64,000 nucleotides of DNA. Source: Streptacidiphilus sp. MAP12-33. GTDB lineage: Bacteria; Actinomycetota; Actinomycetes; Streptomycetales; Streptomycetaceae. Below the pieces are notes generated by a model, which was not told the origin of the DNA, made no database searches, and was given only the letters and a program-made list of their open reading frames with translations. The stretch spans positions 1 through 64,000 of the forward strand of contig NZ_JBGCCA010000031.1 in assembly GCF_041261265.1 (NCBI RefSeq). Direction: 5' to 3'. Position numbers and translations under genes: made by a program. Shown here piece after piece: positions 23,480-54,210 of the stretch (positions are counted from its first letter, which is position 1; every line of letters starts with the position of its first letter).

Positions 23480-24580
<1,101 letters not shown>

Positions 24581-26165: not shown

Positions 26166-26185
26166 GCCGTGAACCCGAGACAGAA

Positions 26186-26222: not shown

Positions 26223-26238
26223 TCGTGCGGCCGGCGGC

Positions 26239-28011: not shown

Positions 28012-28044
28012 CGCGCCCCCGGACGGTGCAACCGGAGGTGGTGC

Positions 28045-29058
28045 CTACTTCTTCGGCTTCGCGCGCAGGCGGGCGGCCTCGTAGAGGACGATGCCGGCGG
28101 CCACGCCCGCGTTGAGGGACTCGGCCTGGCCCGGCATCGGGATACGGACCGTCAGGTCGCAGGTCTCGGCGACCAGGCGGGACATGCCCTTGCCCTCCGA
28201 GCCCATGACGACCACGACGGGGCCCGTCAGCGCGTCGAGGTCGACGAGGTCGTGCTCGCCGTCCGCGGCCATGCCGACGACGAAGAGGCCGGCCTTCTTG
28301 TAGGCCTCCAGCGCACGCGTCAGGTTGCTGGCCCGGGCGACCGGGACCCGCGCCGCCGCGCCGGAGGAGGTCTTCCACGCGCCGGCCGTCATGCCGGCCG
28401 AGCGGCGCTCGGGGACGACGACGCCGTGGCCGTCGAACGCCGCGACGGAGCGGACGACCGCGCCGAGGTTGCGGGAGTCGGTGATGCCGTCGAGCGCGAC
28501 GATCAGCGGGGCGTCACGGTTGACGCCGGCCGCCGCCACGAGGTCGTCCGGGTGGGCGTACTCGTACGGCGGGACCTGGAGGATCAGGCCCTGGTGGTTG
28601 TGGCCCTCGGCGAGGTTGTCCAGTTGCTGGCGCGGGGCCTCCATCAGCGGGACGCCGCGCTCGGTGGCCAGCGACAGCGCGTCGCGGACGCGGTCGTCGT
28701 TGTCGATGAACTGCTGGACGTACAGCGCGGACGCGGGAACGTCACCCTGCAGCGCCTCCAGCACGGAGTTGCGGCCGTAGACCAGCTCCGCGCCGGACTT
28801 GCCGGTGCGGCCGTGGACGCCGCCGCGGCGCGCGCCGCGCGCCTTGTTGTCGGCGGCACGCTTGGCGGCGGCATTCGCGGCGCGCTGCTTCGGGTGGCCC
28901 TTGCGCGCCTCACCGGGCGGCGTCGGGCCCTTGCCCTCGAGCGCCCGACGGCTGTGGCCACCCGTGCCGACCGACGCGCCCTTCTTCGATCCGGGGTTGC
29001 GGCGGTTCCTGCGCTGGCTGTTGCCGGCCATGGGTGCTGTCCTGCTTCCTGCTGACAC
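28045..29058 (-). CDS. rlmB: 23S rRNA (guanosine-2'-O)-methyltransferase RlmB (SpoU/TrmH family) with an Arg/Gly-rich N-terminal extension
   Basis: The SpoU motifs 'LIVALDGITDSRNLGAVVRS', 'VVVVMGSEGKG' and 'IPMPGQAESLNAGVAAGIVLYE' are present. The start may be the ATG at 29031. Confidence 0.85.
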   Translation of the reverse strand: MSAGSRTAPMAGNSQRRNRRNPGSKKGASVGTGGHSRRALEGKGPTPPGEARKGHPKQRAANAAAKRAADNKARGARRGGVHGRTGKSGAELVYGRNSVLEALQGDVPASALYVQQFIDNDDRVRDALSLATERGVPLMEAPRQQLDNLAEGHNHQGLILQVPPYEYAHPDDLVAAAGVNRDAPLIVALDGITDSRNLGAVVRSVAAFDGHGVVVPERRSAGMTAGAWKTSSGAAARVPVARASNLTRALEAYKKAGLFVVGMAADGEHDLVDLDALTGPVVVVMGSEGKGMSRLVAETCDLTVRIPMPGQAESLNAGVAAGIVLYEAARLRAKPKK

Positions 29059-29082
29059 TGCTACTACGGGCTTAAGAAAAGG

Positions 29083-30504
29083 TCACTTGTTGAGGGTCCA
29101 GCGCGAGCCGTCCGCGCGGTCCTCGATGTTGAGCCCGGCCTGGACCAGGCGGTCACGGATGGCGTCGGAGGTGGCCCAGTCCTTGCGCTCGCGGGCAGCC
29201 TGACGCTGCTCCAGGACGAGCCGGACCAGCGAGTCCACCACGCCGTGGAGGTCCTCGCCCGAGCCCGGGCCGGCCCAGAACGGGTCGAGCGGGTCCATGC
29301 CCAGCACACCGAGCATCGCACGGACCTCCGACATACGCGCGACCGCGCTCTCCTTGTCGTCGGCGGCGAGTGCGGCGTTGCCCTGCCGGACGGCGGTGTG
29401 GACGATCGCCATGGCGCCGGGGACGCCGAAGTCCTCGTCCATCGACTCGGCAAAGGCGGGCGGCACGTCGGCGGCGGGCTCGACCGCGCCGTGCAGCTCG
29501 ACCACCCGCTGAAGGAAGGACTCGATGCGGTTGAAGCCGGTCTCGGCCTCGCGCAGCGCGTCCTCGCTGTACTCGATGGTGGAGCGGTAGTGCGGCGTGC
29601 CGAGGTAGTAGCGCAGCACGACGGGCCGCCAGTTCACGACCATCTCGGAGACCAGCACCGAGTTGCCGAGCGACTTGCTCATCTTCTCGCCGCTGAGGGT
29701 CACCCAGGCGTTGTGCAGCCAGTAGGTGGCGAAGTCGTCGCCGAAGGCCTTGGACTGGGCGATCTCGTTCTCGTGGTGCGGGAAGATCAGGTCCCGCCCG
29801 CCGCCGTGGATGTCGAAGCCGCGGCCCAGGTACTTGTGCGCCATGGCGGAGCACTCCAGGTGCCAGCCGGGGCGCCCGCGGCCCCACGGGGTGGGCCAGC
29901 TGGGCTCGCCGGGCTTGGCGGCCTTCCACATGGCGAAGTCGCGCGGGTCGCGCTTGCCCGTCTCGCCCTCGCTCTCGGGCTGGCGCAGGTTGTCCAACTC
30001 CTGGTGCGACAGCGCGAGGTAGTCGGCGTAGGAGGTGACGGAGAAGTAGACGTTGCCCTCGGGCGTCGCGTAGGCGTGACCGCGCTCGATGAGCGCCTGC
30101 ATCATCTCGATCATCTCGGTGATGTGCCCGGTCGCGCGCGGCTCGCCGGTCGGCGGGAGGCAGCCGAGCGCGGTGTAGCCGTCGTTGAAGGCGCGCTCGT
30201 TGGCGTAGGCGATCTGCCACCAGGGCAGGCCGAACTCACGCGACTTGGCGATGATCTTGTCATCGATGTCGGTGACGTTCCGGACGAAGGTGACGTCGTA
30301 GCCGCGGTGGGCGAACCACCGGCGGATGATGTCGAAGTTCAGGCCGGAGCGGATGTGACCGATGTGCGGCGCGGCCTGGACGGTCGCTCCGCACAGGTAG
30401 ATCGACACGCAGCCCGGCGTGCTCGGGACGAAGTCGCGGACCTGGCCGGAGGCGGTGTCGTGCAGGCGAATGCTCACCCCACCAGGGTAGTGGGCGGCGG
30501 GCAC
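29083..30504 (-). CDS. cysS: Cysteine--tRNA ligase
   Basis: It has the HIGH motif 'APHIGHIRS', 'KMSKSLGN' and the Cys-binding 'HLECSAM'. An alternative GTG start lies at 30467. Confidence 0.9.
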
Positions 30505-30652
30505 TGCACTACGCCCATCGGGGGACGGGCCACACTGCTTTATCGCCGTTGTTGCACTGCCGTCAGCTTTGCGGGTGACGGCAGTGCGACGGAGAGGACC
30601 GGGACCGGGTCGGCGACTCAGTAGCGACGACTCGGACGACTCAGTGGAGACG

Positions 30653-31164
30653 TCAGTAGACGAGCGCGGTCGCGACGGCGGTCAGGCCCTCCGCGCGGCC
30701 GGGGAAGCCGAGGCCGTCCGTGGTCGCCCCGGAGACGGAGACGGGCGCTCCGACCGTGGCCGAGAGCAGTTCCTGCGCCTCCGCCCGCCGCATGCCGATC
30801 TTCGGGAACGGTCCGACGACCTGCACGGCGACGTTGCCGATCTCGAATCCGGCCTCGCGGACGATGCGGGCCGCCTCGGCCAGCAGCTTCACGCCGGGGG
30901 CGCCGGCCCACTCGGGGCGGTCGGTGCCGAAGTGGGCGCCGAGGTCGCCGAGGCCGGCGGCGGAGAAGAGGGCGTTGCAGGCTGCGTGGGCGACGACGTC
31001 GGCGTCGGAGTGGCCGTCCAGGCCGACCTCGTAGCCGTCCCACCGCAGTCCGGCGACCCAGAGCTCACGGCCGGCGGCGAAGGCGTGGGTGTCGGTGCCG
31101 ATGCCGGTGCGCGGCAGCCGGTACCCGGGGGCACCGGCTGCCGCGGTGGCGGGCTCAGTACTCA
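30653..31164 (-). CDS. ispF: 2-C-methyl-D-erythritol 2,4-cyclodiphosphate synthase
   Basis: '[25 protein letters not shown]...[14 protein letters not shown]'. The start is at the ATG 31164, within the longer six-frame ORF. Confidence 0.85.
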
Positions 31165-31919
31165 TCGCGGGACCTCCGGCGGGCCAGGACGGCCTCGGCG
31201 AGGACCAGGTCGAGCGGGCGGGTGACCTTGAAGGCCTCCTCGTGACCGGGCACGACCACGACGCGGCCGCCGAAGCGCTCGACGAGCCCGGCGTCGTCGG
31301 TCGCGTCGACACCCTCCTCGACGGCCTTGGCGTGGACGCGGTCGAGCACGTCACGGCGGAAGCCCTGCGGCGTCTGCACGGCGCGCAGGGTGGCGCGGTC
31401 GGGGGTGCCGACGACGGGCTCGGGCAGGCCGGCGGCGCGGGCCGGGGTGACCTGCTTGACGGTGTCGGCGAGCGGGACGGCCGGCACGACGGCCTCGGCG
31501 CCGTCGGCGACGGCGCGCGCGACGGCGTCGACCACGTCGACGGGGACGAGCGGGCGTGCGGCATCGTGCACGAGGACGACGTCGATGTCGGCCGGGAGCG
31601 CGGCGAGGCCGGCCCGGACCGACTCCTGGCGGGTCTCGCCGCCGGGCACCACGACGAGAGCGGCGCTCTCGCGTTCGCCGATCGCGTCCGCGAGCAGTGC
31701 TCTCACTTCGGCGACGCCGTCCTTGGGCGCCACCACCACGACCGTGCCGACGGCGCGCGAACGCGCCAGCACCCGGACCGCGTGGACGAGGATGGGCACC
31801 CCGCCGAGCTCGCGCAGCGCCTTCGGGGCACCGGGCCCCAGTCGCTCACCGCGTCCCGCTGCGGGCACCACTGCTGCGGCGTTCAGGTTTGGTCCCTTCG
31901 GGGATGTGGGTACGGTCAA
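31155..31919 (-). CDS. ispD: 2-C-methyl-D-erythritol 4-phosphate cytidylyltransferase
   Basis: '[26 protein letters not shown]...[10 protein letters not shown]'. It overlaps ispF by 10 bp. Confidence 0.85.
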
Positions 31920-32130
31920 GGCGTGCCGGGCTCAGCGCCCTTCCGTGAAGCGCACCTTGACGCTTGCGCCCGGCAGCGGACCACCACACGGTGGACCACC
32001 AGGCACCGCACCATGTTCGGCGTACGCCTCAGCGCCCGGCGATGCAACCGCCAGGCGCTGGGACGAACGAGAAGAACCGCATGGGCACACGTCTGCGCGC
32101 GGGCAGGGCGCGCAACCGTGTGTCTGCGTA

Positions 32131-32613
32131 CTACGAGGCGAGCACCTCGTCGAGCAGCGTCTCCGCCTTGTCCTCGTTGGTGTTCTCCGCGAGCGCGAGC
32201 TCGCTCACCAGGATCTGGCGCGCCTTGGCGAGCATCCGCTTCTCACCAGCGGACAGCCCGCGCTCGCGCTCGCGACGCCAAAGGTCGCGCACAACCTCGG
32301 CGACCTTGATAACGTCACCCGAGGCGAGCTTCTCCAGGTTCGCCTTGTAGCGGCGGGACCAGTTGGTCGGCTCTTCGGTGTACGGTGCTCGCAGCACCTC
32401 GAAGACCCGGTCCAGACCGTCCTGGCCGACCACGTCGCGCACGCCGACGAACTCGGCGTTCTCTGCAGGAACGCGCAGCGTCAGGTCGCCCTGCTGCACC
32501 TTGAGCACCAGATAGGTCTTGTCCACACCTTTGATCTGGCGAATTTCGATGGCCTCGATCAGCGCGGCCCCGTGATGGGGGTAGACCACGGTGTCGCCAA
32601 CCTTGAACGTCAT
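32131..32613 (-). CDS. carD: CarD-family transcriptional regulator (RNAP-binding)
   Basis: '[39 protein letters not shown]'. Confidence 0.85.
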
Positions 32614-32988
32614 GTGACAGGTACCCCTTCCGTGGCTTTCCAGAGTAACACGCTCCGGGCCGTATCAGAAGGGCGTTTCCGCAGGTCAGAGCTGGTTCGC
32701 AGGCTTGACAACGGCCCCGGTTCCGTGCTGCGACCCCTGTTCGAGAACCCCTTCTCGCAGGTCGGAGCGGTTGTCCACGAACCTGCGCGAAGGCCGTCAC
32801 CCTGCAATGATCTTGCGTTCAGGGCGTTATCCAACCGTGATCTGATCTTCGTCCAGGCGGGTCCACCGACCTGTTCGGACCGGCTCGTGGGTGCGACACG
32901 GGCTACCCCGTGTGGAGCGGATAAAGGCCCTCGGTAATCTGAACGCGGACCAGAACCTTCAAACCGTTCAACAAGGAGCACCCTCCCC

Positions 32989-33621
32989 GTGAGCCGCAGT
33001 CTTCGTCGCGGCGCGGTCGCCGCCGTCATCGCCGTCGCGATCGCCCCCGTCCTCGCCGCCTGCTCTGCGGGGTCCAGCGCGGCGACCCTTCAGGTCAAGC
33101 CGAACGCAGCCGCCACCGCCATCAGCAATGGCCAGCTCAAGCTGAACGGCGTGGCCGTCGTCACCGACGCCCAGGGCAACGCGCCGGCCAGCGTCATCGC
33201 GAGCATCGCCAACAACGAGACGCAGGCCGAGAACCTCGTCTCGGTCACCGTCGGCACCACCGCCGCCACCCTGACGGGCACCACGGCCATCCCGAGCGGC
33301 TCCGCACTGAGCCTGGGCACCCCGGGCGCCAACGCCACGCTGGCGACCGTGCCGACCCTGGACCAGCCCGCGGGCGCCAACATCCCGGTGACCTTCGTCT
33401 TCGCCAACGGCGGCTCGGTCACGCTGAACGCCCAGATCCAGACCGGCACCGGCGAGTACGCCCCGTACGCCCCGGCCACGCCGACGCCGACCCTGACCGC
33501 GGTGCTGCCCTCGGCCAGCGGCACCGGCCTGCCGGCCGCGTCCGGCTCGGCCGCCGCGCACGAGACCAAGAAGGCCGGCGAGCCCAAGAAGACCTCGCCG
33601 TCGCCCAGCTCCACGCACTGA
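32989..33621 (+). CDS. Putative lipoprotein (lipobox 'LAACSAG'), Ala/Thr-rich
   Basis: It has a signal peptide and a lipobox, and is low-complexity. Confidence 0.55.
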   Translation: MSRSLRRGAVAAVIAVAIAPVLAACSAGSSAATLQVKPNAAATAISNGQLKLNGVAVVTDAQGNAPASVIASIANNETQAENLVSVTVGTTAATLTGTTAIPSGSALSLGTPGANATLATVPTLDQPAGANIPVTFVFANGGSVTLNAQIQTGTGEYAPYAPATPTPTLTAVLPSASGTGLPAASGSAAAHETKKAGEPKKTSPSPSSTH

Positions 33622-33639
33622 CGCGTCACCTCGCACGTC

Positions 33640-33688
33640 ACATCACAAGAGGCCGGGGCGGCACCGAATGTTCGGTGCCGCCCCGGCC
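33640..33688. terminator. Bidirectional intrinsic terminator
   Basis: 'gaggccggggcggcaccgaatgttcggtgccgccccggcctctttcg'. Confidence 0.7.
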
Positions 33689-33721
33689 TCTTTCGAGTGA
33701 ACCTCGTCCTGCTCGGGCCGA

Positions 33722-34408
33722 TCAGGGCTCGAACTTGTAGCCCAGGCCGCGCACGGTGACCAGGTAGCGCGGGGCGCCCGGGTCCGGCTCGATCTTCGCG
33801 CGCAGGCGCTTGACGTGGACGTCGAGGGTCTTGGTGTCGCCGACGTAGTCGGCGCCCCAGACCCGGTCGATCAGCTGCATACGGGTGAGCACCCGGCCCG
33901 CGTTGCGCAGCAGCATCTCCAGCAGGTCGAACTCCTTGAGCGGCAGGTCGACCTTGGCGCCGTCGACGGTCACCACGTGACGGTCCACGTCCATGCGGAC
34001 CGGGCCGGCCTCCAGCGCGCCGGGGCCACCACTGGTCTCCTCGGTCTCGCCGCGGCGGCGCAGCACCGCGCGGATCCGGGCGACGAGCTCACGGGTCGAG
34101 TAGGGCTTGGTGACGTAGTCGTCCGCCCCTATCTCCAGCCCGACGACCTTGTCGATCTCACTGTCCTTGGCGGTGACCATGATCACCGGTACGGAGGACT
34201 TGGCACGCAACTGGCGGCAGACCTCGGTACCCGGCAGGCCGGGCAGCATCAGGTCGAGCAGCACCAGGTCCGCGCCGTTGCGCTCGAACTGGTCCAGCGC
34301 GTCGGGGCCGGTGGCGGCGATGGCCACCTCGAAGCCCTCCTTGCGCAGCATGTAGGAGAGGGCGTCGCTGAAGGACTCCTCGTCCTCGACGACAAGCACA
34401 CGGGTCAC
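33722..34408 (-). CDS. phoP: OmpR-family response regulator PhoP
   Basis: It has a receiver 'VLVVEDEESFSDAL...DLVLLDLMLPG' and a winged-helix C-terminus. Its GTG start overlaps the phoR stop (GTGA). Confidence 0.85.
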   Translation of the reverse strand: MTRVLVVEDEESFSDALSYMLRKEGFEVAIAATGPDALDQFERNGADLVLLDLMLPGLPGTEVCRQLRAKSSVPVIMVTAKDSEIDKVVGLEIGADDYVTKPYSTRELVARIRAVLRRRGETEETSGGPGALEAGPVRMDVDRHVVTVDGAKVDLPLKEFDLLEMLLRNAGRVLTRMQLIDRVWGADYVGDTKTLDVHVKRLRAKIEPDPGAPRYLVTVRGLGYKFEP

Positions 34409-35721
34409 GGCATGGCCTCCGGGGCGGCAGGGGTGGTGGTGGGAGCAGGGGGGTGGGCGTCGGGGCCGGCGGGCAGGTCGCCGGCTCCGTCGTGGTCGGC
34501 GGGGTCGTCGAGGACGGCTGGGCCGTCGAAGTCGGGGTGGCCGACGGCGTTGAGTCCGGTGGCGTTCTCGGTGCCCTTCACGGTGGGCAGGCGCAGGGTG
34601 AACGTCGAGCCCTGGCCCTCGACACTCCACACTGCCACGCTGCCGCCGTGGGACGCGGCGACGTGCTTGACGATGGAAAGGCCGAGGCCGGTGCCCCCGG
34701 TGGCGCGGGAGCGGGCCGGGTCGACCCGGTAGAAGCGCTCGAAGATCCGGTCGCGGTCCTTCTCGGAGATGCCCACACCCTGGTCGGTGACGGATATCTC
34801 CACCAGGTCCTGCTTGCCGCCGGGGAGCTTGCGGGCCGCGATGGCCACCCGGGTACGGGCGGGGCTGTAGTTGACGGCGTTCTCCACGAGGTTGCCCAGC
34901 GCCGCGGCGAGCTGGCCGCGGTTGCCGTAGAGCTGGAGGCCCGCGATGCCACCGGCGGCCATGGTGATCTGCTTGGCCGCGGCCTGGTGGCGGCAGCGGT
35001 CCATCGCCTCGGCGACCAGCTCGTCGATCGGCACCATCTCGGCGTCGACCAGACGGACGTCGTCCTGGACCCGGGAGAGCTCGATGATCTCCTGCACCAG
35101 GTTGGTCAGCCGGGCGGACTCGATCAGCATGCGGCCGGCGAAGCGGCGCACCGCCTCGGGGTCGTCGCTGGCGTCCTGGACCGCCTCGGAGAGCAGCGAG
35201 AGGGCGCCGACGGGCGTCTTCAGCTCGTGCGAGACGTTGGCGACGAAGTCGCGGCGCACCGCCTCGATCCGCCGGGCCTCGGTCAGGTCCTCGACCAGCA
35301 CCAGCACCAGCCGGGACCCCAGCGGCGCGACGCGGACGGAGACCGCGAGCAGCTCACCCCCGCCGCTCGCGCGTCTGGGGATGTCGAGGTCGGCCTGCCG
35401 TATCTCGCCGTCACGCCGGGTGAGCCGGCCCATGGCGAGGATCGCGTCGACGGCGATCGCCCCTCCCCGCACCAGCCCGAGGGCGTAGGCGGCGGAGCTC
35501 GCCTTGATCACCTGATCGCTCTCGTCCAGCACGACGGCGCAGGAGCGCAACACCGACAGCACGGTGTCCACACCCGGCGGCAGAGCCGGTTCCTCCTGCT
35601 GGTCGGTGCGCTTGGAGGGCAGGTGCTCCTTCTCGCTCCAGCGGAAGGCGAGCGCGGCGGTAAGGCCGACTCCGAGCCCGACGAGCGCGCTGACGGAGGC
35701 GGCGGCCACGTTCACATCCAT
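34405..35721 (-). CDS. phoR: Sensor histidine kinase PhoR
   Basis: It has an N-terminal TM, the H-box 'VSHELKTP' and HATPase 'GGTGLGLSIVKH'. Confidence 0.8.
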   Translation of the reverse strand: MDVNVAAASVSALVGLGVGLTAALAFRWSEKEHLPSKRTDQQEEPALPPGVDTVLSVLRSCAVVLDESDQVIKASSAAYALGLVRGGAIAVDAILAMGRLTRRDGEIRQADLDIPRRASGGGELLAVSVRVAPLGSRLVLVLVEDLTEARRIEAVRRDFVANVSHELKTPVGALSLLSEAVQDASDDPEAVRRFAGRMLIESARLTNLVQEIIELSRVQDDVRLVDAEMVPIDELVAEAMDRCRHQAAAKQITMAAGGIAGLQLYGNRGQLAAALGNLVENAVNYSPARTRVAIAARKLPGGKQDLVEISVTDQGVGISEKDRDRIFERFYRVDPARSRATGGTGLGLSIVKHVAASHGGSVAVWSVEGQGSTFTLRLPTVKGTENATGLNAVGHPDFDGPAVLDDPADHDGAGDLPAGPDAHPPAPTTTPAAPEAMP

Positions 35722-35900
35722 GCCAATCAGCGTAAGCGCACGTCGGTGACCTGCCGTAACCCTCGGACAATGCGCTCAGCCGCCGGATGCCGAGAATTCA
35801 CCTTCACGTCTCCGGTGGTTCACTCCTGCTGAGGACGTGGGTCGTCCGGGCGGCGCACAGTAGTCTGCGAACACCCGTCCAGGAGGGATGAGAGCTAAGC

Positions 35901-36578
35901 ATGCGCGACGCGTACCACGAGGAACTCGACTCGATCAGCGACGGCCTGGTGGAGTTGGCCCGCCTGGCCGGCTCCGCGATGGGCCGGGCGACCACGGCGC
36001 TGCTCGACGCCGACCTGGAGCTGGCGGAGTCCGTGATCGCCGCGGACGAGAAGCTGGACCAGCTGCACCATGACCTGGAGAACCGCGCCATCGCGCTGCT
36101 GGCCCGCCAGCAGCCGGTCGCGACCGACCTGCGCATCGTGGTCACCTCCCTGCGCATGAGCGCGGACCTGGAGCGCAGCGGCGACCTGGCCCGCCACGTG
36201 GCCAAGCTGGCCCGGCTGCGCTACCCGGAGTCCGCGGTCCCGCAGGACCTGCACCCGATCATCCTGGAGATGGGCCAGCTCGCCCAGCGCCTGATCGCCA
36301 AGGCCGGTCAGGTGATCGCGACCAAGGACGTCGACGAGGCGCTGGAGCTGGAGCGCGACGACGACCGGATGGACGAGCTGCACAAGCTGCTCTTCGCCCA
36401 CCTGCTCGACGACCGCTGGCACCACGGTGTGGAGACGGCGGTCGACGTCACGCTCTGCGGCCGCTACTACGAGCGCTTCGCCGACCACGCGGTCTCGGTG
36501 GCCAAGCGCGTGGTCTTCCTGGTCACCGGCGAGCACGCGGACGACTTCGTCCCCGAGGCCGGCCCCGGCCAGGAGTAA
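35901..36578 (+). CDS. phoU: Phosphate signalling complex protein PhoU
   Basis: It has two PhoU repeats ('DLRIVVTSLRMSADLERSGD', 'DVTLCGRYYERFADHAV') and is divergent from phoRP, as in Streptomyces. Confidence 0.85.
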   Translation: MRDAYHEELDSISDGLVELARLAGSAMGRATTALLDADLELAESVIAADEKLDQLHHDLENRAIALLARQQPVATDLRIVVTSLRMSADLERSGDLARHVAKLARLRYPESAVPQDLHPIILEMGQLAQRLIAKAGQVIATKDVDEALELERDDDRMDELHKLLFAHLLDDRWHHGVETAVDVTLCGRYYERFADHAVSVAKRVVFLVTGEHADDFVPEAGPGQE

Positions 36579-37687: not shown

Positions 37688-37744
37688 CCGACCGGCCGAC
37701 GACGGCCCGGAAGAGGCTGGGAAGAGAAGAGGGCCCCTCAGCCG

Positions 37745-37783
37745 CGCCGTGTGCGCGGGTGAGGGGCCCGGTGGTGCGGGTCG
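37745..37783. terminator. GC-rich hairpin terminator
   Basis: 'gggcccctcagccgcgccgtgtgcgcgggtgaggggccc'. Confidence 0.6.
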
Positions 37784-38000
37784 TTACTTCTTGCCCTGGG
37801 TCTGGGGGGCCCTATTTTCGACCCTGGTCAGCGGGCTGAGCACCTCAGCTGACCTCCTATTGGGCAGTCGTTGTACGTCGTCATTGGTCGTCCTAGGGCG
37901 ACCCCGGAGGGCCCAGAGAGGGCCCAGCGGTGGACCCCTGACCGATGAAGAGGAGCAGCCCGCGCCCGGCTTGCGGTCGACCCCGGACGGATACTCCCGG

Positions 38001-40761: not shown

Positions 40762-41112
40762 TCACCGGCCTTCAAGCTCCGCGACCCGCGCCCGGAGATC
40801 CTGCACCTCGGTGCGCAGGGCAGCCACTTCCCCCCGCAGTTGGTCGAGATCGGCCGGCGGCAGGGACTTGGCCGCAATGGCTGCGGCATCGGGAACCAGG
40901 AACGCCGCCTTCCCCTGATGGCTCTTCACGAGGCCAGCTTCACGAAGCTGAGCCACAGCAGAGCGAATCACGGTCACTGAGACGTCGTAGCGCTGCTCAA
41001 GCTGCGACAGCGAGGGAATTCGACCGGCGGCATCGAACTCGCCGGCCGCGATCCTCGCCCGAAGGTCTTCGGACACCTGCTGATAGGCGGGCTTTCCGGA
41101 CCAATCGACCAT
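40762..41112 (-). CDS. GntR-family regulator (HTH only plus a C-terminal coiled coil), Kor-like repressor of AICE-2
   Basis: 'MVDWSGKPAYQQVSEDLRARIAAGEFDAAGRIPSLSQLEQRYDVSVTVIRSAVAQLREAGLVKSHQGKAAF'. Confidence 0.7.
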   Translation of the reverse strand: MVDWSGKPAYQQVSEDLRARIAAGEFDAAGRIPSLSQLEQRYDVSVTVIRSAVAQLREAGLVKSHQGKAAFLVPDAAAIAAKSLPPADLDQLRGEVAALRTEVQDLRARVAELEGR

Positions 41113-41202
41113 CAAGGCTCCACATCTCGAATGCTTCTCTGCCCCATAGTGCCCCATCCGAGACGCGGAGGAACACACTCCGATTCTCGCTCGGCTAGGG
41201 GA

Positions 41203-41250
41203 CTTGCCAACTCTGTCTCTCTGCCCCACAGTAACTGTGAGACAGAGAGA
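41203..41250. promoter_or_regulatory. Long imperfect palindrome 'ctctgtctctctgccccacagtAactgtgagacagagagacagag' upstream of the GntR gene, a putative operator
   Basis: The 22-bp arms have 18/22 complementarity (a 3-nt bulge plus one mismatch, at ccc/c versus tc/c). Confidence 0.5.
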
Positions 41251-41447
41251 CAGAGTCTCGCCCGGAGGCCCCGTGAGACGGGCTGAAGGAAGCACTTGTT
41301 CCTTGAGAACTCAACAGTGGATGAGATTCTGGGGCGTCCCGCCTCCCCAACGCCGAGCCCATAGAGAGGGCTGCCGGCCAAGGCGGGCCGCGCGGCATCA
41401 AGGCCGCGCACGTAACCGGCCGCAGGACCCGCGAGGGTCTTGCCTCC

Positions 41448-44990: not shown

Positions 44991-47285
44991 GTGACGCCTG
45001 CCAGCAGAGACGCGCCCCGGCCGCCCTTCACCCATCGCTATGAGGAAGGTCCCTCAGTGAACCACGACCCGCTCAACGAGCCCGTGGAGCCCGACGACCT
45101 GCCGGTGTACCTGCCGACCGACACCAGCGGCGGCGAGGTGCTGCCGTTCCCCGACCGCTTCCCCAGGCCCCCGACCGACACCCCCACCACCGGGCCGACC
45201 GACACCCCGCCCCTCGCCCCGACCACGGCCCCGACCGCGCCGGCGGATGAGGACGACGAGGACGACGAGGAGTCGGCGCCCAAGCCCACCGTTCCGGCCG
45301 ACCCGCCGAACCTTGCCCCGCCGGGGATAACCGAGGTCAACCGGCGACCGATCGTGCCGGAGTGGATGCAGAACAAGCCCGACTTCCTCTCCGCGACCGG
45401 CCGGGCGCTTGGGCACTTCGGGTACGCGTTCGCGTTCCACGCGATCCGCTGCCCGTACTACACCCTCCGACTGCTCACCACCGCCCCGCGCGGGACGGTC
45501 CGGTTCATCTCTGCGACCAACCGTTGGGTGTGGGACAGCGAGGCGGCCCCGCTACGCGCCCACGCCGTCCTGACGGAGGACGCGGGCCAGTACATGACTC
45601 TCGTCCGCTCGCGTGACCGCAAGGTCCGACTCAGGGTCGCCCTCATGCTCGTGGCGTCCGTGTTCGGGACCGTGTTCGCCCTCACGACCTACGTCATGGC
45701 GCCGGCCGCCCTGTGGGCCCTGGCGAGCTCCGCGCTGATGGTGCTGGGGTGGCGCGGCCGACCCGAGGACAAGCCCATCATCGGCCCCGCGGTCATCAAG
45801 TCGGAGTTGGAGAAGCTCACCACCTCCATCGTGCTGCGGGCGCTGGGTGCGATCGGGAACGACCGGATCAACCGGGCGCTGCTCAAGGGCGGCGAGGGCG
45901 TCAAGTTCACCTCGGAGATCACCCGCGACGGGCCCGGCTACCGCGCGGACATCGACCTGCCCTACGGCGTGACGCCCGAGGACATCATGGAGAAGCGCAA
46001 GGCCCTGGCCTCGGGGCTTCGGCGCAAGCTCGGGTGCGTGTGGCCGGGCCCCAACCCGGACTCCCACGAGGGCGCGTTGATCCTGTGGGTGGGCGACAAG
46101 CCCATGAACGAGACGAAGAAGCCCGCGTGGCCGCTGCTCAAGGCCGGTGTGGTGGACCTGTTCAAGCCGGTCGTGTTCGGCAACGACCAGCGCATGCGCG
46201 AGGTCTGCGTGTCGCTGATGTTCGCCGCCGTGTGCGTCGGCTCCATCCCGCGCATGGGCAAGACGTTCCTGATGCGGCTTCTGCTGCTGATCTGCGCACT
46301 GGACCCGCGGGCGCAGATCTACGCGTTCGACTTCAAGGGCACCGGCGACTTCTCCCCGCTGGAGCCGGTCTGCCACGCCTACCGCGCCGGCGACGACGAG
46401 GACGACATCGCCTACGTCGTGGCCTGCCTCAAGGAACTGCGCGAGGAGATGCGGCGCCGCACCAAGGTGATCCGCTCCCTGCCCAAGAGCGTGTGCCCGG
46501 AGTCCAAGGTCACCCCGGAACTCGCCAACCGCAAGGAACTGGGGCTGCACCCGATCGGGGTGGCGCTGGACGAGTGCCAGATCGCGTTCGAGCACCCCAC
46601 CTACGGCGCGGAGATTGAGGCCATCTGCACCGACCTGACCAAGCGCGGGCCGGCGCTGGGCATCATCCCGATGTTCGGCACGCAGCGCCCCGACGCCAAG
46701 TCGCTGCCCACCGGCATCAGCTCGAACCTGGTGCTCAAGTTCTGCCTCAAGGTCCTCGGTCAGCCCGCCAACGACATGGTGCTGGGCACGTCGATGTACA
46801 AGGCGGGCATCCGCGCCACCATGTTCTCCCGCTCCGACAAGGGCATCGCGTGGATGGCCGGCGAGGGCGACGACCCGCAGATCGTCTGCTCCGCCTATGT
46901 GGACGCCCTTGCCGCCGAGCAGGTCGTGATCCGCGCCCACAAGATGCGCGAGCAGTACGGCAACATCACCGGCTACGCCGCCGGTGTGGAGCCGGAGACG
47001 CTCGTGGCGCCGACGTACGACCTGCTCTCCGACGTCCTCGCCGTTGTGCCGGTGGACGAGGAGAAGGTGTGGAACGAGAAGGTTGCCGGCCGCCTCGCCG
47101 AGCTGCGCCCGGAGGTCTACGGCGGCTGGAAGGGCGAGACGGTCACCACGAACCTCAAGCCGCACGGCGTGCCGGTGCAGGACGTCTGGGGCACCCCGAC
47201 CGGTGGCGGCAAGGGCACCACCCGCCGCGGCATCGCCCGAGCCGACGTCCTCAAGGCACACACGGAGCGTGACCGCAGCGCGTAG
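44991..47285 (+). CDS. FtsK/SpoIIIE-family conjugal DNA translocase (TraB-like)
   Basis: It has a Walker A 'GSIPRMGKTFLMR', a Walker B 'GVALDECQ' and N-terminal TM segments. A possible GTG start lies at 45057. Confidence 0.8.
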   Translation: MTPASRDAPRPPFTHRYEEGPSVNHDPLNEPVEPDDLPVYLPTDTSGGEVLPFPDRFPRPPTDTPTTGPTDTPPLAPTTAPTAPADEDDEDDEESAPKPTVPADPPNLAPPGITEVNRRPIVPEWMQNKPDFLSATGRALGHFGYAFAFHAIRCPYYTLRLLTTAPRGTVRFISATNRWVWDSEAAPLRAHAVLTEDAGQYMTLVRSRDRKVRLRVALMLVASVFGTVFALTTYVMAPAALWALASSALMVLGWRGRPEDKPIIGPAVIKSELEKLTTSIVLRALGAIGNDRINRALLKGGEGVKFTSEITRDGPGYRADIDLPYGVTPEDIMEKRKALASGLRRKLGCVWPGPNPDSHEGALILWVGDKPMNETKKPAWPLLKAGVVDLFKPVVFGNDQRMREVCVSLMFAAVCVGSIPRMGKTFLMRLLLLICALDPRAQIYAFDFKGTGDFSPLEPVCHAYRAGDDEDDIAYVVACLKELREEMRRRTKVIRSLPKSVCPESKVTPELANRKELGLHPIGVALDECQIAFEHPTYGAEIEAICTDLTKRGPALGIIPMFGTQRPDAKSLPTGISSNLVLKFCLKVLGQPANDMVLGTSMYKAGIRATMFSRSDKGIAWMAGEGDDPQIVCSAYVDALAAEQVVIRAHKMREQYGNITGYAAGVEPETLVAPTYDLLSDVLAVVPVDEEKVWNEKVAGRLAELRPEVYGGWKGETVTTNLKPHGVPVQDVWGTPTGGGKGTTRRGIARADVLKAHTERDRSA

Positions 47286-48944: not shown

Positions 48945-49048
48945 TTCACATCTGCATCAACTCCAGTACACAGCAGCCAAATTGAAGATCCGTGCTGCGC
49001 GCCGAAGCCCAGAAAGGCCCCTTTGAGGGCCTGAGAGGACTCTGCGGG

Positions 49049-49897
49049 ATGGAATCCACCTTCGACCTGATGAACGTCGCTCTGGCGGTCGCACAACGCG
49101 GTCGCCCGGTCCTTCCGCTCGCCGTGGGCAAGCTTCCCTTCGGAAACTGCGGCGCCTGCCAGAAGAGCCGCTGCGGGGACCGTCCGAACATGCTCAAGCC
49201 CGGCCCGTGTCGGTGTCCGCGCCCATGCCATGGGTGGGCCGCGGCCACCACCGACCCGCGCGTCATCACCTCGCCCCACTGGGCTGCGGCCTGGCGGCGC
49301 GCGGAGGCCCTGGCCTACCACCCCGGGGGCGCCGGGCTGACCGTGCTGGACCTCGACAACGCCGACGCGGTCGCGTGGGCCAGGGAGCATCTACCGGCCA
49401 CGCTGACCGTGGCCACGACCCGCGGCGAGCACTGGCTCTACCGCGGGGCGATGCGCTCCCGCAACAGCGTGCGGCCCGGCATAGACATCAAGTCCACGAT
49501 GGCCTACGCCCGCTGGCTCGGTCCCGGCATCGGTGCCATAGCGGCGCTCCCCGACGCGGTGCGTGCGTTGGCCGCGAAGGAGCCCGCCCCGGTCCGGCCG
49601 GCGGCTCAGGTCAACGTCGTGCCCCCGGGCGCCGCTGGCAGGCAGTGCCGTCACCGCACGCCCGCCTATCTTGACCGTGGCATCGACATGGCGGAGCAGC
49701 GCATCACCGAGGCCCGCGAAGCGATCCACAACACCGTGTACCGGACGTTCCTCGCCGTGTTGTCGGCCCACGGCCGGTGCGGCTGCCTCACCGACGCCCA
49801 CGTCGCGCGCCTATTCACCGCCGCGCAGGCCAAGGGCGAATCGCCGCGGCATTGCACCGACGCATGGGCCAACGCCCGCAGCAAGTTGGGACTGTAG
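49049..49897 (+). CDS. Bifunctional DNA primase/polymerase (prim-pol) N-terminal-domain protein, the replication initiator of AICE-2
   Basis: 'LAVAQRGRPVLPLAVGKLPFGNCGACQ...GAGLTVLDLDN' is the prim-pol fold signature. Confidence 0.6.
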   Translation: MESTFDLMNVALAVAQRGRPVLPLAVGKLPFGNCGACQKSRCGDRPNMLKPGPCRCPRPCHGWAAATTDPRVITSPHWAAAWRRAEALAYHPGGAGLTVLDLDNADAVAWAREHLPATLTVATTRGEHWLYRGAMRSRNSVRPGIDIKSTMAYARWLGPGIGAIAALPDAVRALAAKEPAPVRPAAQVNVVPPGAAGRQCRHRTPAYLDRGIDMAEQRITEAREAIHNTVYRTFLAVLSAHGRCGCLTDAHVARLFTAAQAKGESPRHCTDAWANARSKLGL

Positions 49898-49899
49898 CC

Positions 49900-51375
49900 A
49901 TGTCCGACGACGACAAGACCCCGGCCCGCGAGATCATCGCCGACTACGCGCGGCAGCACTTCCGGTACTTCCGCACCGCCGACGGGACCGTGTACGCGCA
50001 ACAGAACGGCCACCCCGTGGCCCGCCCGATCCGCTCGCAGGGCACCTCGGGCAGCCACCGGCAGGAGCTCATGGTGGGCCTGTTCAACGACGGGCACGGG
50101 GTGTTCAACGGCACCGCGCTCAAGGAAGCGCTGGACCTCATTGAGGCCCTCGCGCTGATCCAAGACGTCCAACCCGTGCACATCCGTGTCGCGCCGGGAT
50201 TCGACGGTGCAACGTGGCTGGACCTGGGCCGCAACGACGGGCAGTCCATCCGGATCCACCCCACCGGCTGGGACACCCTCACCCCCAACCCGCAGGAGGT
50301 GTGCTGGCGACGTACCCAGCTCACCGGCGAACTCCCCCTACCCGCCCGGGACACGAACGGCAAGGGCATCGACCTCCTCCTGGGCCTGTGCAACTTCGCC
50401 AGTGCGGAGACCGAGACCCTCGCCCTCGCCTGGCTGATCGGCTGCCTCGGACCGTCCGTGCCGGTCCCCGCACCCTTCCTCACCGGCCCCCAAGGCGCGG
50501 GCAAGTCCACCGGGGGACGGATGCTCGTCAGGGTCATCGAAGGCATGAGCGGCGACCTGCGCCGGGCACCGAAGGACGAAGAGAACCTGATCGCGGCCGT
50601 GGCTGCCGGGTGGGTCACCGCCCTGGACAACCTCTCCCACCTGGCCCCCGACCTGTCTGACCTGATGTGCTGCATCGTCACCGGCGCCGAAACCATCAAA
50701 CGCGCCCTCTACACCGACGGGGATGTCGTCCGCGCCCGCTACCGCCGGCCCCTGCTGCTGACCGGCATCGACGTCGGCGTGATCCGCCCCGACCTCGCCG
50801 AACGCCTCCTCCCGCTACGTCTGGAACGCCCCCGCACCCGGCGCACCGAAGCCGAGCTGTGGACGGAGTTCGAAGAGGCCCTACCCGTCATCCTCGGGTC
50901 TCTCCTCGACCTCACGGTCAAGGTCCGCGCAGCCGAGGCCGACATCCCCACCGATCTGCGCATGGCCGACTTCGCCCACCTGTGCGCACAACTCGACGTC
51001 GCCACCGGCCTCACCTCGCTGGGCGCTTACCGGACCAGCCTGGACGACCTCAACGACGACGTCATCGAAGGCGACCTCCTCGCACAGACCGTCCTCCAGC
51101 ACGCCGCCGGCCTCGACGCGGGAGCAGAGGAACGCAAGACGTCCGCCGAGTGGCTCCAGGTGCTGACCCACCTCTACACCGGCGACGGCTTCCGCCCCCT
51201 GCCCAAGGGCTGGCCCACCACGGGCAAGGTCCTCTCCGACCGCCTCAAGCGGCTCCAGCCCACCCTCACCGCCCGCGGCGTCCTGATCGACTGGGGCCGC
51301 AACAAAGCAGCCCGCTACATCGAGATGGCCCGCCCACCGGCACCGCCGCCGAACGCGCAGGAACAGGCGTTCTGA
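49900..51375 (+). CDS. Phage/plasmid primase C-terminal (P4/D5-type) SF3 helicase-like ATPase
   Basis: It has a Walker A 'LTGPQGAGKSTGGRM', follows prim-pol and is coupled to it. Confidence 0.6.
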   Translation: MSDDDKTPAREIIADYARQHFRYFRTADGTVYAQQNGHPVARPIRSQGTSGSHRQELMVGLFNDGHGVFNGTALKEALDLIEALALIQDVQPVHIRVAPGFDGATWLDLGRNDGQSIRIHPTGWDTLTPNPQEVCWRRTQLTGELPLPARDTNGKGIDLLLGLCNFASAETETLALAWLIGCLGPSVPVPAPFLTGPQGAGKSTGGRMLVRVIEGMSGDLRRAPKDEENLIAAVAAGWVTALDNLSHLAPDLSDLMCCIVTGAETIKRALYTDGDVVRARYRRPLLLTGIDVGVIRPDLAERLLPLRLERPRTRRTEAELWTEFEEALPVILGSLLDLTVKVRAAEADIPTDLRMADFAHLCAQLDVATGLTSLGAYRTSLDDLNDDVIEGDLLAQTVLQHAAGLDAGAEERKTSAEWLQVLTHLYTGDGFRPLPKGWPTTGKVLSDRLKRLQPTLTARGVLIDWGRNKAARYIEMARPPAPPPNAQEQAF

Positions 51376-51534
51376 CCTGCAACTGAACGCCCCGAAAGGC
51401 AAGAGGAGCACCACCGCGCCCCGGGGTGCTCCTCTTGCTATTCGGCGCAGCGCGCCGCCCGTGGTCGCGCCGCGAAGCGGCTCCTTCTTCTCGTTCTGAC
51501 GCGCACCACACCACAACGACAACCCCATCTCTTG

Positions 51535-51790
51535 TCCTAAGAGAAGAGATCCTGCGTCACCCGCGTCACCCGAGGTCGAAAAGGGCGCCTGAGCTGCCAC
51601 TACAGCGGTGACGCAGCCGCCGACGGCTGCGTCATCCTGCGTCACCTGCGTCACCACCGGGTGACGCAGACCCGTGCCGGTGACGCACCCCCGAAACCTC
51701 TGCGTCACCCAAAGCCGCAGGCCAGAAGCACGGATGACGCGGATGACGCGGTGACGCAGAACGCGGCACCTCGGACAGACATGGCGTCGA
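51535..51790. repeat. Dense array of about 12 copies of the GTGACGCAG / CTGCGTCAC motif in both orientations
   Basis: Direct reading, between the rep genes and xis. Confidence 0.8.
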
Positions 51791-51812
51791 GAACCCAGAA
51801 ACCGAGGACTCA

Positions 51813-52058
51813 ATGAGCCGAATACGTTCCGCTCAATCCGACCAGGACACCGCGCTCCACAGCGTCCTGCCCGATAGGTACCTCACGACCGACGACATCG
51901 CCGAAATCTTCGACGTACCCATCGAAACGGTCTACCAGTGGCGCAGAAAACGCACGGGTCCCCCCGGCTTCCGCATCGGCAAGCACGTGCGTTACGACCC
52001 CGCTGAAGTGAGGGCCTACGTCGCTCAGCTCAAGAACGTCGACCGCGCCGCGGCTTGA
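51813..52058 (+). CDS. xis: Excisionase / AlpA-like HTH DNA-binding protein
   Basis: 'LTTDDIAEIFDVPIETVYQWRRKRTGPPGFRIGKHVRYDPAEVRAYV'. Confidence 0.7.
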   Translation: MSRIRSAQSDQDTALHSVLPDRYLTTDDIAEIFDVPIETVYQWRRKRTGPPGFRIGKHVRYDPAEVRAYVAQLKNVDRAAA

Positions 52059-52134
52059 CGCAGCCTCTCGCACCACCAGGGGTGGCCGTCGGACGGCCAC
52101 CCCTTCTCAACACTGAGAAGGGACTCCGCCTCCA

Positions 52135-53370
52135 TTGGCAGGGAGCATCCAAGACCGTTGGTACAAGACCATCACCGACGCCGAGGGGAAGACGGTTCGC
52201 CTCAAGACCGACCGCTACGGGAAGGGCATGCGCTACCGGGCCCGCTACTTCACGCCCGATGGAGAGCGAAAGACCAAGTCCTTCCCTGACGGGCAGAAAC
52301 GCCTCGCCGAGCAGTGGCTGAGCAACGTCACTGCGGATGTTGCTCGTGGCGACTTCATCGACCCCAACGCATCCCGCGTGACGTTCCAGGCGTTCGCTGA
52401 GAAATGGCTCGAAACCCAAAGCGGCGACCCGAACACCAGGGCATCCATGGTGTCGCAACTCACACTGCATGCCTTTCCTCGCATCGGCCCGCGTCCGCTT
52501 GGGTCGTTCCAGCCAAGTCACATTCGCGAGTTTGTGACGCAACTCGAAGCGTCCGGCATGTCCGGCTCGTACGCCCGCGTCATCTTCTCCAACGTTCGCG
52601 CTGTGCTCTCAGCGGCCGTGGAGGATGGGTGCCTTCGGCGGAATCCCTGCAACTCGCGGACGGTCACCCTGCCGGCCATGGGCATGCGGCGAGTCGTGCC
52701 ATGGGAGCCTGACCGCGTCTTCACGGTGCGTGCCGCCATGGTCGAACGCTTCCGGCCCATGGTCGACGTGGGTGCCGGATGCGGCCTGCGGCAAGGCGAG
52801 ATTCTTGGCCTTTCCGTCGATGACATCGACTTCGACAGCGGCACCTTGCACGTCGTACAACAGCTGAAGCTGAGCCTGAGCAAGCCCGTGTTCGCGCCCC
52901 CGAAGGGAGGAAAGCTCCGCGACGTACCGTTGCCCGACCCCGTGGCGGAGTCGCTGCGCGCGCACATCGAGCGGTTCCCGCCCGTAGAGATCAAGCTCCC
53001 GTGGATGCGGGCGAACGGCCAGCCGGTGACCCGTCGGCTCATCTTTACAGGCCCCAACGGCGGGCACGTCTGGCGGACGTCGTTGAACGAAGACCATTGG
53101 AAGCCCGCACTCGCGCAGGCGGGCGTCATCCCGAAGGCCAAGAGTCGCGAGCACGCTGCCGCCCGCGAGCACGGCATGCACGCGCTGCGGCACTTCTATG
53201 CCTCGGTGCTGCTGGACGCGGGGGAGAGCATCAAGGCCCTCGCCGAGTACCTCGGCCACTCCGACCCGGGGCTGACGCTGAAGGTGTACGCACACCTCAT
53301 GCCGAGCAGCCGGGACCGCGCCCGCAAGGCCCTCGAACGCGTCCTCCAGCCCCAGGGGTCGGAGGACTGA
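52135..53370 (+). CDS. int: Tyrosine integrase of AICE-2
   Basis: It has an N-terminal arm-binding 'RLKTDRYGKGMRYRARYFTPDGE' and a catalytic 'HALRHFYASVLLDAGESIKALAEYLGHSDPGLTLKVYAHL' (R..HxxR..Y). Confidence 0.9.
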   Translation: MAGSIQDRWYKTITDAEGKTVRLKTDRYGKGMRYRARYFTPDGERKTKSFPDGQKRLAEQWLSNVTADVARGDFIDPNASRVTFQAFAEKWLETQSGDPNTRASMVSQLTLHAFPRIGPRPLGSFQPSHIREFVTQLEASGMSGSYARVIFSNVRAVLSAAVEDGCLRRNPCNSRTVTLPAMGMRRVVPWEPDRVFTVRAAMVERFRPMVDVGAGCGLRQGEILGLSVDDIDFDSGTLHVVQQLKLSLSKPVFAPPKGGKLRDVPLPDPVAESLRAHIERFPPVEIKLPWMRANGQPVTRRLIFTGPNGGHVWRTSLNEDHWKPALAQAGVIPKAKSREHAAAREHGMHALRHFYASVLLDAGESIKALAEYLGHSDPGLTLKVYAHLMPSSRDRARKALERVLQPQGSED

Positions 53371-53394: not shown

Positions 53395-53437
53395 AAAAAA
53401 GCCTCCCACCCGCGCCATTCGCGCAGGTGGGAGGCAT
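53395..53437. terminator. Intrinsic terminator of gpmA (minus strand)
   Basis: 'aaaaaagcctcccacccgcgccattcgcgcaggtgggaggc'. Confidence 0.65.
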
Positions 53438-53448
53438 GATCATGTTTT

Positions 53449-54210
53449 CTACTTCTTCTTGCCCTGGTTCTTGACCGCCTCGATCGCGGCGGCGGCGGCC
53501 TCCGGGTCGAGGTAGCGGCCGCCCTTGGTGAGGGGCTTGAAGTCGGCGTCGAGCTCGTAGACGAGCGGGATGCCGGTGGGGATGTTGAGCCCGGCGATGG
53601 CCTCGTCGGAGATGTCGTCGAGGTGCTTGACCAGCGCGCGCAGCGAGTTGCCGTGGGCGGTGACCAGGACCGTGCGGCCGGCGGCCAGATCCGGGACGAT
53701 CGCGTCGTACCAGTACGGCAGCATGCGGTCGACGACGTCCTTGAGGCACTCGGTCTGCGGGCGGATGTCGCCCGGCAGCTCGGCGTAGCGGAGGTCGTGG
53801 GCCTGCGAGTACTCGGCGTCGTCGGCGAGCGCGGGCGGCGGGGTGTCGTAGGACCGGCGCCAGAGCATGAACTGCTCCTCGCCGAACTCGGCGAGGGTCT
53901 GCGCCTTGTCCTTGCCCTGGAGCGCGCCGTAGTGGCGCTCGTTCAGGCGCCAGCTGCGGTGGACCGGGATCCAGTGGCGGTCCGCGCGGTCCAGCGCGAT
54001 CTGTGCGGTGCGGATGGCGCGGCGCAGCAGGGAGGTGTGCAGCACGTCGGGCAGCAGGCCCTCGGCGGCGAGCAGCTCGCCGCCGCGTACGGCCTCCTTC
54101 TCGCCCTTGGCGTTCAGGTCGACGTCGACCCAGCCGGTGAACAGGTTCTTCTCGTTCCACTGGCTCTCGCCGTGGCGGAGCAGCACAAGACGGTAGGGAG
54201 CATCAGCCAT
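53449..54210 (-). CDS. gpmA: 2,3-bisphosphoglycerate-dependent phosphoglycerate mutase
   Basis: '[26 protein letters not shown]' and 'HGNSLRAL' are present. The start is at the ATG 54210. Confidence 0.9.

Follow-up and report, generated by a model that had tools for sequence, protein, structure and literature searches.

We analyzed a 64,000-nucleotide stretch of DNA from Streptacidiphilus sp. MAP12-33 (contig NZ_JBGCCA010000031.1, positions 1 to 64,000; hereafter the window), which carries an integrative conjugative element. Between the replication genes of this element and its excisionase and integrase genes (xis and int) lies an array of twelve short repeats. Sequence comparisons, a structure model and analogy with characterized replicons together indicate that the array is likely to comprise the iterons of the vegetative origin of a replicon that uses a primase-polymerase (Prim-Pol) and a superfamily 3 (SF3) helicase. 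Judging from the comparisons, the repeats are most likely read by the helicase encoded upstream and not by the excision genes downstream. The array is linked to the helicase/Prim-Pol pair, with which it co-varies, and it is independent of xis/int and of the transfer protein TraB. The genes concerned are:

48992-49897, + strand: Prim-Pol (bifunctional primase/polymerase; Pfam PF09250, E 2.5e-10), first gene of the replication cassette
49900-51375, + strand: predicted 491-residue initiator-helicase (SF3, D5/SaPI-Rep-like) whose C-terminus is winged-helix-like; proposed iteron binder
51813-52058, + strand: xis, an HTH_17 excisionase (Pfam PF12728, E 1.3e-11), in an adjacent, apparently exchangeable module outside the predicted origin
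52135-53370, + strand: int, a tyrosine integrase (Pfam PF00589, PF22022), in the same adjacent module

The Prim-Pol gene, which ends at 49897, is directly 5' of the helicase gene, which starts at 49900. The Pfam assignments of Prim-Pol, Xis and the integrase agree with the neighbors given in a first-pass annotation made from the sequence alone.

Twelve sites between the helicase gene and xis

The first-pass annotation had described about 12 motif copies at this place, and its coordinates, copy number and neighbors are correct. Twelve TGACGC cores are found in 51552-51759, in both orientations. They lie between 51554 and 51757, against 59 cores in the whole window. At the rate set by the other 47, about 0.15 would be expected in 208 bp (Poisson P ~3e-19). 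Perfect GTGACGCAG/CTGCGTCAC 9-mers occur seven times in 51552-51759 and only once elsewhere in the 64 kb, at 25321. When the window was shuffled, the mean number of these 9-mers was 1.39, and none of 100 shuffles had at least eight. The sites are best described as 10-mers with the consensus G-R-TGACGC-A-G, six per strand:

51552-51561, - strand: iteron 1, CTGCGTCACC, core conservation 1.00
51561-51570, - strand: iteron 2, CCGCGTCACC, core conservation 0.98
51607-51616, + strand: iteron 3, GGTGACGCAG, core conservation 1.00
51627-51636, - strand: iteron 4, CTGCGTCATC, core conservation 0.99
51637-51646, - strand: iteron 5, CTGCGTCACC, core conservation 0.99
51646-51655, - strand: iteron 6, CTGCGTCACC, core conservation 0.99
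51660-51669, + strand: iteron 7, GGTGACGCAG, within the array's variable middle, where copy number and orientation differ among loci; core conservation only 0.39
51679-51688, + strand: iteron 8, GGTGACGCAC, core conservation 0.95
51700-51709, - strand: iteron 9, CTGCGTCACC, core conservation 0.98
51733-51742, + strand: iteron 10, GATGACGCGG, core conservation 0.95
51742-51751, + strand: iteron 11, GATGACGCGG, core conservation 0.98
51750-51759, + strand: iteron 12, GGTGACGCAG, core conservation 1.00

Start-to-start spacings range from 8 to 46 bp, with tandem sites 8-10 bp apart. Most sites of the left half are on the - strand, and most of those in the right half are on the + strand. The array starts 177 bp past the helicase stop (51375), its last site ends 384 bp past that stop, and 53 bp separate it from the xis ATG (51813). 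The repeats are intergenic. With the motif on both strands, the region forms a long discontinuous inverted repeat (inverted pairs I2-I25). As single-stranded DNA the array folds at -76 kcal/mol (z = -8.8), a strong fold-back potential. An extra near-copy, TTGACGCAGCC, is found at 52055-52065, overlapping the xis stop codon just 5' of int.

The array accompanies the replication genes in related loci

The helicase has at least 546 relatives, counting one genome per species, in Streptomyces, Streptacidiphilus, Kitasatospora-like genera, and Actinomadura. We compared 80 loci (L001-L080) with 6 kb flanks in which the helicase is 83-93% identical, using an alignment of 81 sequences. All 80 have 5-17 TGACGC cores in the 450-600 bp past the helicase stop. 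The layout past the stop is syntenic, with '<' and '>' marking the two orientations: '<<' at about +180/189, '>' at about +236, '<<<' at about +257/267/276, a variable middle, '<' at about +330, and '>>>' at about +363/372/380. The 911 sites found over the loci give the consensus G-R-TGACGC-A-G. Copy number changes in tandem 9-bp steps, with seven sites in a row in L012, a kind of stepwise variation that iterons typically show.

Only Prim-Pol (64-75% identity) and the helicase (83-93%) are present in all 80 loci, the helicase being much the better conserved of the pair. More than half of them have downstream genes without detectable homology to the xis and int of the window. The loci inspected encode AlpA-like and other HTH_17 excisionases together with integrases of 380-530 residues from several subfamilies, while the motif stays the same.

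Streptomyces clt loci, the sequences recognized by TraB, consist of arrayed repeats of 8 bp that a winged-helix domain recognizes (Vogelmann 2011, cited in PMC3583192). No other repeat cluster of at least five copies was found in the element, so no separate clt could be identified. Even so, it is very improbable that the array is the clt. It lies 4.3 kb downstream of traB (44991-47285, a weak TraB/FtsK match with E 0.0023 and 17.8 bits, where the gathering score is 24), and the replication genes separate the two. A TraB homologue was undetectable within 6 kb in 33 of the 80 loci and is 22-68% identical in the others, while the motif is constant and tracks the helicase lineage. In plasmid pWTY27 the iterons and the clt locus are apart (PMC3583192).

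Plasmids without xis and int carry the array, and its sequence follows the helicase

A tblastn search of a plasmid collection with the helicase returned 29 records. Six small Streptomyces plasmids (22-46 kb) encode helicases that are 60-69% identical, and all four that were inspected have an array between the helicase gene and parA. In the circular Streptomyces plasmids CP109214.1 and CP109021.1 (helicase 69%) the order is a GntR gene, Prim-Pol, helicase, 11-15 copies of GGTGACGCAG, and parA, with no xis or int there. Plasmid pFP12 and a plasmid of S. alfalfae (helicase 61-62%) have 13-14 copies of GGGGGACGCAG in the same place. On a linear Actinacidiphila (A. glaucinigra) plasmid (L086, NZ_CP109145.1; helicase 42%), twelve GGTGACGCAC sites at 4465-4782 form an exact 6+6 mirror with spacings of 19, 11, 12, 67, 8, 75, 8, 67, 12, 11, and 19, which suggests two hexamers loaded head to head. 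More distantly, pFP11, pSTS2 and an NBC_01238 plasmid (helicase 35%) have 11-12 copies of (A)GGGACGCAC. The pFP11 homologue (35% identity, E 7e-48) is encoded beside a Prim-Pol gene, and its own homologues include fusions to Prim-Pol, DUF3854 and Toprim domains.

The core shared by these arrays is GACGCA, and the flanking bases differ by helicase clade. This shift of the flanking bases with the helicase clade is the pattern expected of an initiator and its iterons. The first-pass annotation had offered either an origin or binding sites of the excision and integration proteins. Of these the origin is strongly favored, as the array travels with Prim-Pol and the helicase in the 80 loci and on non-integrative plasmids and co-varies with the helicase.

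Lying upstream of parA on the plasmids, the array might be taken for a partition centromere with parS/parC-like repeats. It is almost certainly not one. The 80 integrative elements keep the array without an adjacent parA, on which ground this candidate was dropped, and the plasmids carry a second, different repeat set directly before parA. In CP109214.1 (L081) this second set consists of TGACGTCATGGCGTCATGGCCTCGTGGCGTCAC repeats at 6080-6115, directly 5' of parA, and is probably a partition site or operator.

The repeats upstream of xis track the replicase, not the excisionase

The array is directly upstream of xis-int, and the first-pass annotation had accordingly also considered sites for Xis, as recombination directionality factor, and integrase arm-type sites of attP. 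In a reciprocal test, integrases 68-89% identical to that of the window were examined in their own contigs. These integrase genes are always beside a histidine-phosphatase (His_Phos) gene, whatever the replicase. Two of the elements encode RepSA, the pSAM2-type replicase, along with an Xis that is 67-68% identical, with a near-identical helix-turn-helix, and an Int that is 68-70% identical, and they occupy the same His_Phos site. Both lack TGACGC in the 700 bp upstream of xis and have no cluster of it anywhere in the element. The reciprocal comparison thus indicates that the repeats upstream of xis track the replicase and not the excisionase.

A role of the array as Xis or integrase sites is therefore exceedingly improbable. 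The same motif and layout are found beside unrelated Xis/Int subfamilies and on parA plasmids without xis/int, and both are missing next to a related Xis/Int with RepSA at the same His_Phos site. Conservation ends before xis, and some 1.6 kb separate the array from the int stop (53370) and from the int-proximal end of the element; it does not adjoin a crossover core. The Xis of pSAM2 reportedly binds a similar 9-mer, GTCACGCAG, in attP, which would favor such a role; a full-text search for GTCACGCAG returned primer sequences only. A further point in its favor is that a Kitasatospora element with a related Xis (L091) has GGTGACAG repeats 5' of xis.

L091 belongs to the same Int/Xis family and has a DUF2742/DUF3987 module for replication. 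Its array ahead of xis, at 3860-4300, is a different one, with about ten copies of CTGACACC followed by a triplet of CTGTCACC repeats facing three GGTGACAG. A small element, L090, whose integrase is 89% identical, has 4-6 direct repeats of GCGTCAC/CGTCAC at 4400-4460, 9-12 bp apart. They are inside a 279-residue open reading frame (ORF) preceding xis and recall the RepAM sites of pMEA300.

A conserved non-coding block ends at a fixed junction

Conservation extends beyond the repeats themselves. The following features were identified between the helicase gene and xis:

51376-51778, no strand: conserved non-coding block in the 81-sequence alignment, proposed as the whole cis-acting origin region, with a sharp module boundary at its end
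51397-51437, + strand: hairpin with 13-bp stems CAAGAGGAGCACC / GGTGCTCCTCTTG (inverted repeat I1); stems at least 95% conserved, loop variable
51463-51492, + strand: second G+C-rich hairpin followed by a T-rich run, a conserved terminator-like match
51531-51540, + strand: left flanking element TTGTCCTAAG, in the most A+T-rich 20-mer of the region (51532-51551, 60% A+T)
51770-51778, + strand: right flanking element CCTCGGACA, the final conserved bases ahead of the xis-int cassette

In 51376-51778, many columns reach 95% identity or more. Identity to the window averages 0.70 in 51376-51551, 0.93 in the iteron cores, 0.63 in the spacers, and 0.25 past 51778. The drop is abrupt and follows CCTCGGACA, 34 bp 5' of the xis ATG. 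This sharp end and the varied genes beyond it indicate that the array is part of the replication cassette and that xis-int is an exchangeable module joined at a fixed junction. At 51778/51779 all 80 related elements are alike up to CCTCGGACA and then diverge completely into differing xis-int cassettes. From their sequences, the replication and integration modules appear to have been swapped at this single fixed point.

The reverse complement of CCTCGGACA, TGTCCGAGG, is an imperfect inverted copy of TGTCCTAAG in the left element, so the pair brackets the array. Plasmids L081 and L082 have GTGTCCTAAG at the position of the left element and CTTAAGACA at that of the right, and GTCCTAAG of the left element is likewise found just ahead of their arrays. 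We infer that the left element is a candidate unwinding or host-factor site. The TGTCC core of the flanking elements resembles the Streptomyces DnaA box TTGTCCACA (7/9 matches).

The hairpin at 51397-51437 is probably a terminator or structural element, and the same two plasmids have a hairpin of other sequence at the equivalent position. Together with the hairpin at 51463-51492 it may serve in termination or as a primase or single-strand initiation signal. A search of Rfam gave only matches far below threshold.

The fixed junction bears on whether the array is primarily a transcriptional operator rather than an origin, acting at a xis-int promoter or in rep autoregulation and bound by Rep or by a Kor-type GntR protein. 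As the xis-int cassettes are all fused 30-35 bp past the conserved block, a promoter or read-through would have to come from the block. On the plasmids a GntR gene is directly ahead of Prim-Pol, and the RepAM sites that lie upstream of xis in pMEA300 have been suggested to act in regulation (PMC2440964). We nonetheless consider it improbable that the array is mainly an operator. A set of twelve non-palindromic sites, in both orientations and spanning 200 bp, does not resemble GntR operators, the GntR gene of the window is 10 kb away, and a promoter scan of 51300-52200 detected no sigma-70-like promoter. The array also persists on plasmids in which parA, not xis, comes next, some 300 bp on and with its own repeats. 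Operator function is compatible with an origin, and a secondary regulatory role is plausible.

A tentative extension is that the origin doubles as an excision control. Because the cassettes are always spliced 30-35 bp past 51778, expression of xis-int may need read-through or a promoter embedded in the array. Loading of the initiator could then gate Xis/Int synthesis and couple replication with excision or integration. A related idea, based on the 6+6 mirror array of the distant relative L086, is that the array templates a head-to-head double hexamer. We regard this extension as possible but rather unlikely.

The upstream gene is predicted to encode a self-loading SF3 initiator-helicase

The helicase matches a protein of Streptacidiphilus sp. 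MAP12-33 at 100% identity, and proteins 83-93% identical to it are annotated as 'ATP-binding protein' in very many Streptomyces genomes. Searches of Pfam, NCBIfam and PDB sequences found nothing beyond a P-loop/Walker A motif. The family is abundant (hundreds of genomes), yet no Pfam or NCBIfam model matches it and its annotation is only 'ATP-binding protein'. The label 'P4-type helicase' given in the first-pass annotation is unsupported by sequence families but is borne out at the level of the fold, as the structure model is that of an SF3 helicase.

The model predicts with confidence an SF3 fold of the self-loading initiator-helicase type. Its best match among all solved structures is SaPI5 PriRep, a primase-helicase of a Staphylococcus aureus pathogenicity island (SaPI), at about 10% identity in structural alignments. 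Vaccinia/mpox D5/E5, C962R of African swine fever virus (ASFV), Cch of the staphylococcal cassette chromosome SCCmec, SaPI1 PriRep1, and NrS-1 are also listed with the fold comparison. In the model, the last ~100 residues have the DSSP order H-S-H-H-S-S, which fits a winged helix. Most of the sub-significant matches of the C-terminal domain are winged-helix DNA binders, including the origin-binding domain of phage P4 (1ka8, E 0.67). The winged-helix C-terminus predicted by the model is suggestive. As matches of the isolated domain are sub-significant, the call rests on topology and on the full-length match.

We propose the following mechanism, in which the binding protein, the melting site and the firing of an origin at the array are all inferred. 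After excision, the C-terminal winged-helix-like domain of the helicase would recognize the GRTGACGCAG sites. The helicase would assemble and oligomerize on the oppositely oriented clusters, where tandem sites 8-10 bp apart are separated by roughly one helical turn. Melting of nearby DNA, possibly at the A+T-richest flank (51532-51551), would be followed by self-loading. With primers made by Prim-Pol, theta-type replication of the circular form would ensue.

Several points weigh against this reading of the array as origin iterons. It has no central A+T-rich spacer of the SaPI type, and the A+T-richest 20-mer is at the left flank with merely 60% A+T. The C-terminal domain alone gave only sub-significant matches in Foldseek (best E 0.2). 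No obvious array was found downstream of a helicase that is 41% identical (L087). The identity of the helicase per domain does not separate plasmids with the same motif from those with a different one, so this comparison does not locate the specificity determinant, and the binding protein could be Prim-Pol. As clues to specificity, a wing insertion in the GGGGGACGCAG group and changes to a WPTTGK...RLKR helix in the ...GCAC groups are only suggestive.

Comparison with known replicons

The primase and SF3 helicase functions of phage P4 are combined in its alpha protein with a C-terminal winged-helix origin-binding domain, which reads direct and inverted octamers (type I iterons of ori and crr). 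The cassette of the window is similar in having a primase, an SF3 helicase and repeats in both orientations, and the P4 domain 1ka8 is among the weak C-terminal matches, at no significant level. It differs in that P4 joins the three functions in one polypeptide and uses two separate cis sites, ori and crr.

In the SaPIs the order is primase, Rep, and ori, with the origin directly downstream of rep and 6-12 iterons in opposite directions (PMC9371898). The winged-helix domain in the C-terminal domain of SaPI Rep binds the iterons without ATP, and Rep self-loads (PMC9371898). The order of primase, SF3 helicase and predicted origin is the same here, as is the placing of the iterons downstream of rep in opposed groups, with 12 here against 6-12. 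Both systems are on integrated mobile elements that replicate after excision. The two have no detectable sequence similarity, however. The iterons of the window measure 9-10 bp, against 5-6 bp in the SaPIs; its primase is a Prim-Pol of the archaeo-eukaryotic primase (AEP) type, and a central A+T-rich spacer is lacking. The hosts differ as well, in that the present element is conjugative and from a high-G+C actinomycete while the SaPIs are mobilized by phages.

Closer in host is pWTY27, whose minimal replicon consists of repB (Prim-Pol), repA (522 residues) and an adjacent 300-bp non-coding iteron region (PMC3583192). Its 8-bp iteron motif is on both strands in a long inverted repeat footprinted by RepA, and the plasmid replicates bidirectionally (PMC3583192). 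Iteron binding is likewise stated for the RepA proteins of pFP11 and pFP1 (PMC3583192). Compared by layout and not by RepA sequence, pWTY27 has the same order of Prim-Pol, a second rep gene of about 500 residues, and adjacent non-coding repeats. The array shares with IR2 of pWTY27 a strong single-strand fold-back. The iteron sequence of pWTY27, GTGGGAAC, is different. Besides its 35%-identical helicase homologue beside Prim-Pol, pFP11 has about 12 AGGGACGCAC repeats with the GACGCA core; its array is about 540 bp from the helicase gene, past a small reverse ORF. Both are plasmids, whereas the cassette of the window belongs to an integrating element and is linked to xis-int.

The integrative and conjugative elements of actinomycetes (AICEs) offer two further comparisons. 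In pMEA300 of Amycolatopsis, RepAM binds multiple identical 8-bp repeats just upstream of xis (PMC2440964). These repeats are hairpin-capable and were suggested to be linked to xis expression, and a rolling-circle-like nick site has been put forward as well (PMC2440964). As predicted for the element in the window, pMEA300 pairs an AICE initiator with repeats just 5' of xis. RepAM is a DUF3631 protein, though, and its repeats are inside the 3' end of repAM, while the repeats here are intergenic and the predicted initiator is an SF3 helicase. Family searches found no DUF3631 match. SLP1 and 16 other AICEs have Prim-Pol and an adjacent putative replication gene (RepPP) directly upstream of xis, with mechanism and origin unknown (PMC2440964; PMC3218068). 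The likeness of the present cassette to SLP1, with Prim-Pol and a second replication gene upstream of xis, is by description only. An iteron array is not described for the SLP1-type module (PMC2440964; PMC3218068), and the word 'iteron' is absent from PMC3218068. A 2022 population study of Streptomyces AICEs mentions neither origins nor iterons.

The kind of system, an iteron origin read by an initiator-helicase, is known, and its assignment to a widespread cassette appears to be new. AICEs need replication for transfer, and a concrete predicted origin of about 400 bp with defined iterons can now be assigned to the Prim-Pol or 'RepPP'-class cassette with its many helicase relatives. The model would identify an unannotated 'ATP-binding protein' as an SF3 initiator-helicase, and the comparison points to exchange of replication and integration modules at one precise junction. 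The cassette would offer a ready-made minimal replicon for building vectors, along with a natural set of iteron variants for specificity studies. Were the templating of a double hexamer true, the array would be a simple bacterial model of double-hexamer loading. The result is useful for the field rather than surprising.

Element ends and other genes of the window

A chromosomal His_Phos gene is directly 3' of int. The 3' end of this gene appears to be attB, because integrase homologues in four other genomes adjoin a His_Phos gene. A search for att sites found no exact repeat of at least 16 bp. By gapped comparison, there is a tentative imperfect direct repeat at 37740-37805 and 53408-53473; its exact core of 13 bp is CTTCTTGCCCTGG, and it lies at the 3' end of the His_Phos gene. 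From sequence, these could be attL and attR, giving an element of about 15.7 kb. Other genes in the window include a GntR regulator (40762-41295, - strand) and an ORF containing a WhiB domain by Pfam.

The region near a tRNA-Thr gene was also considered as an element and rejected, since 23-36.6 kb consists of housekeeping genes with no integrase. This tRNA-Thr (23140-23216) is the only tRNA of the window. It is followed by genes for an ABC transporter ATPase, cysS, ispD, and a phoR-like kinase with phoU (23140-36578).

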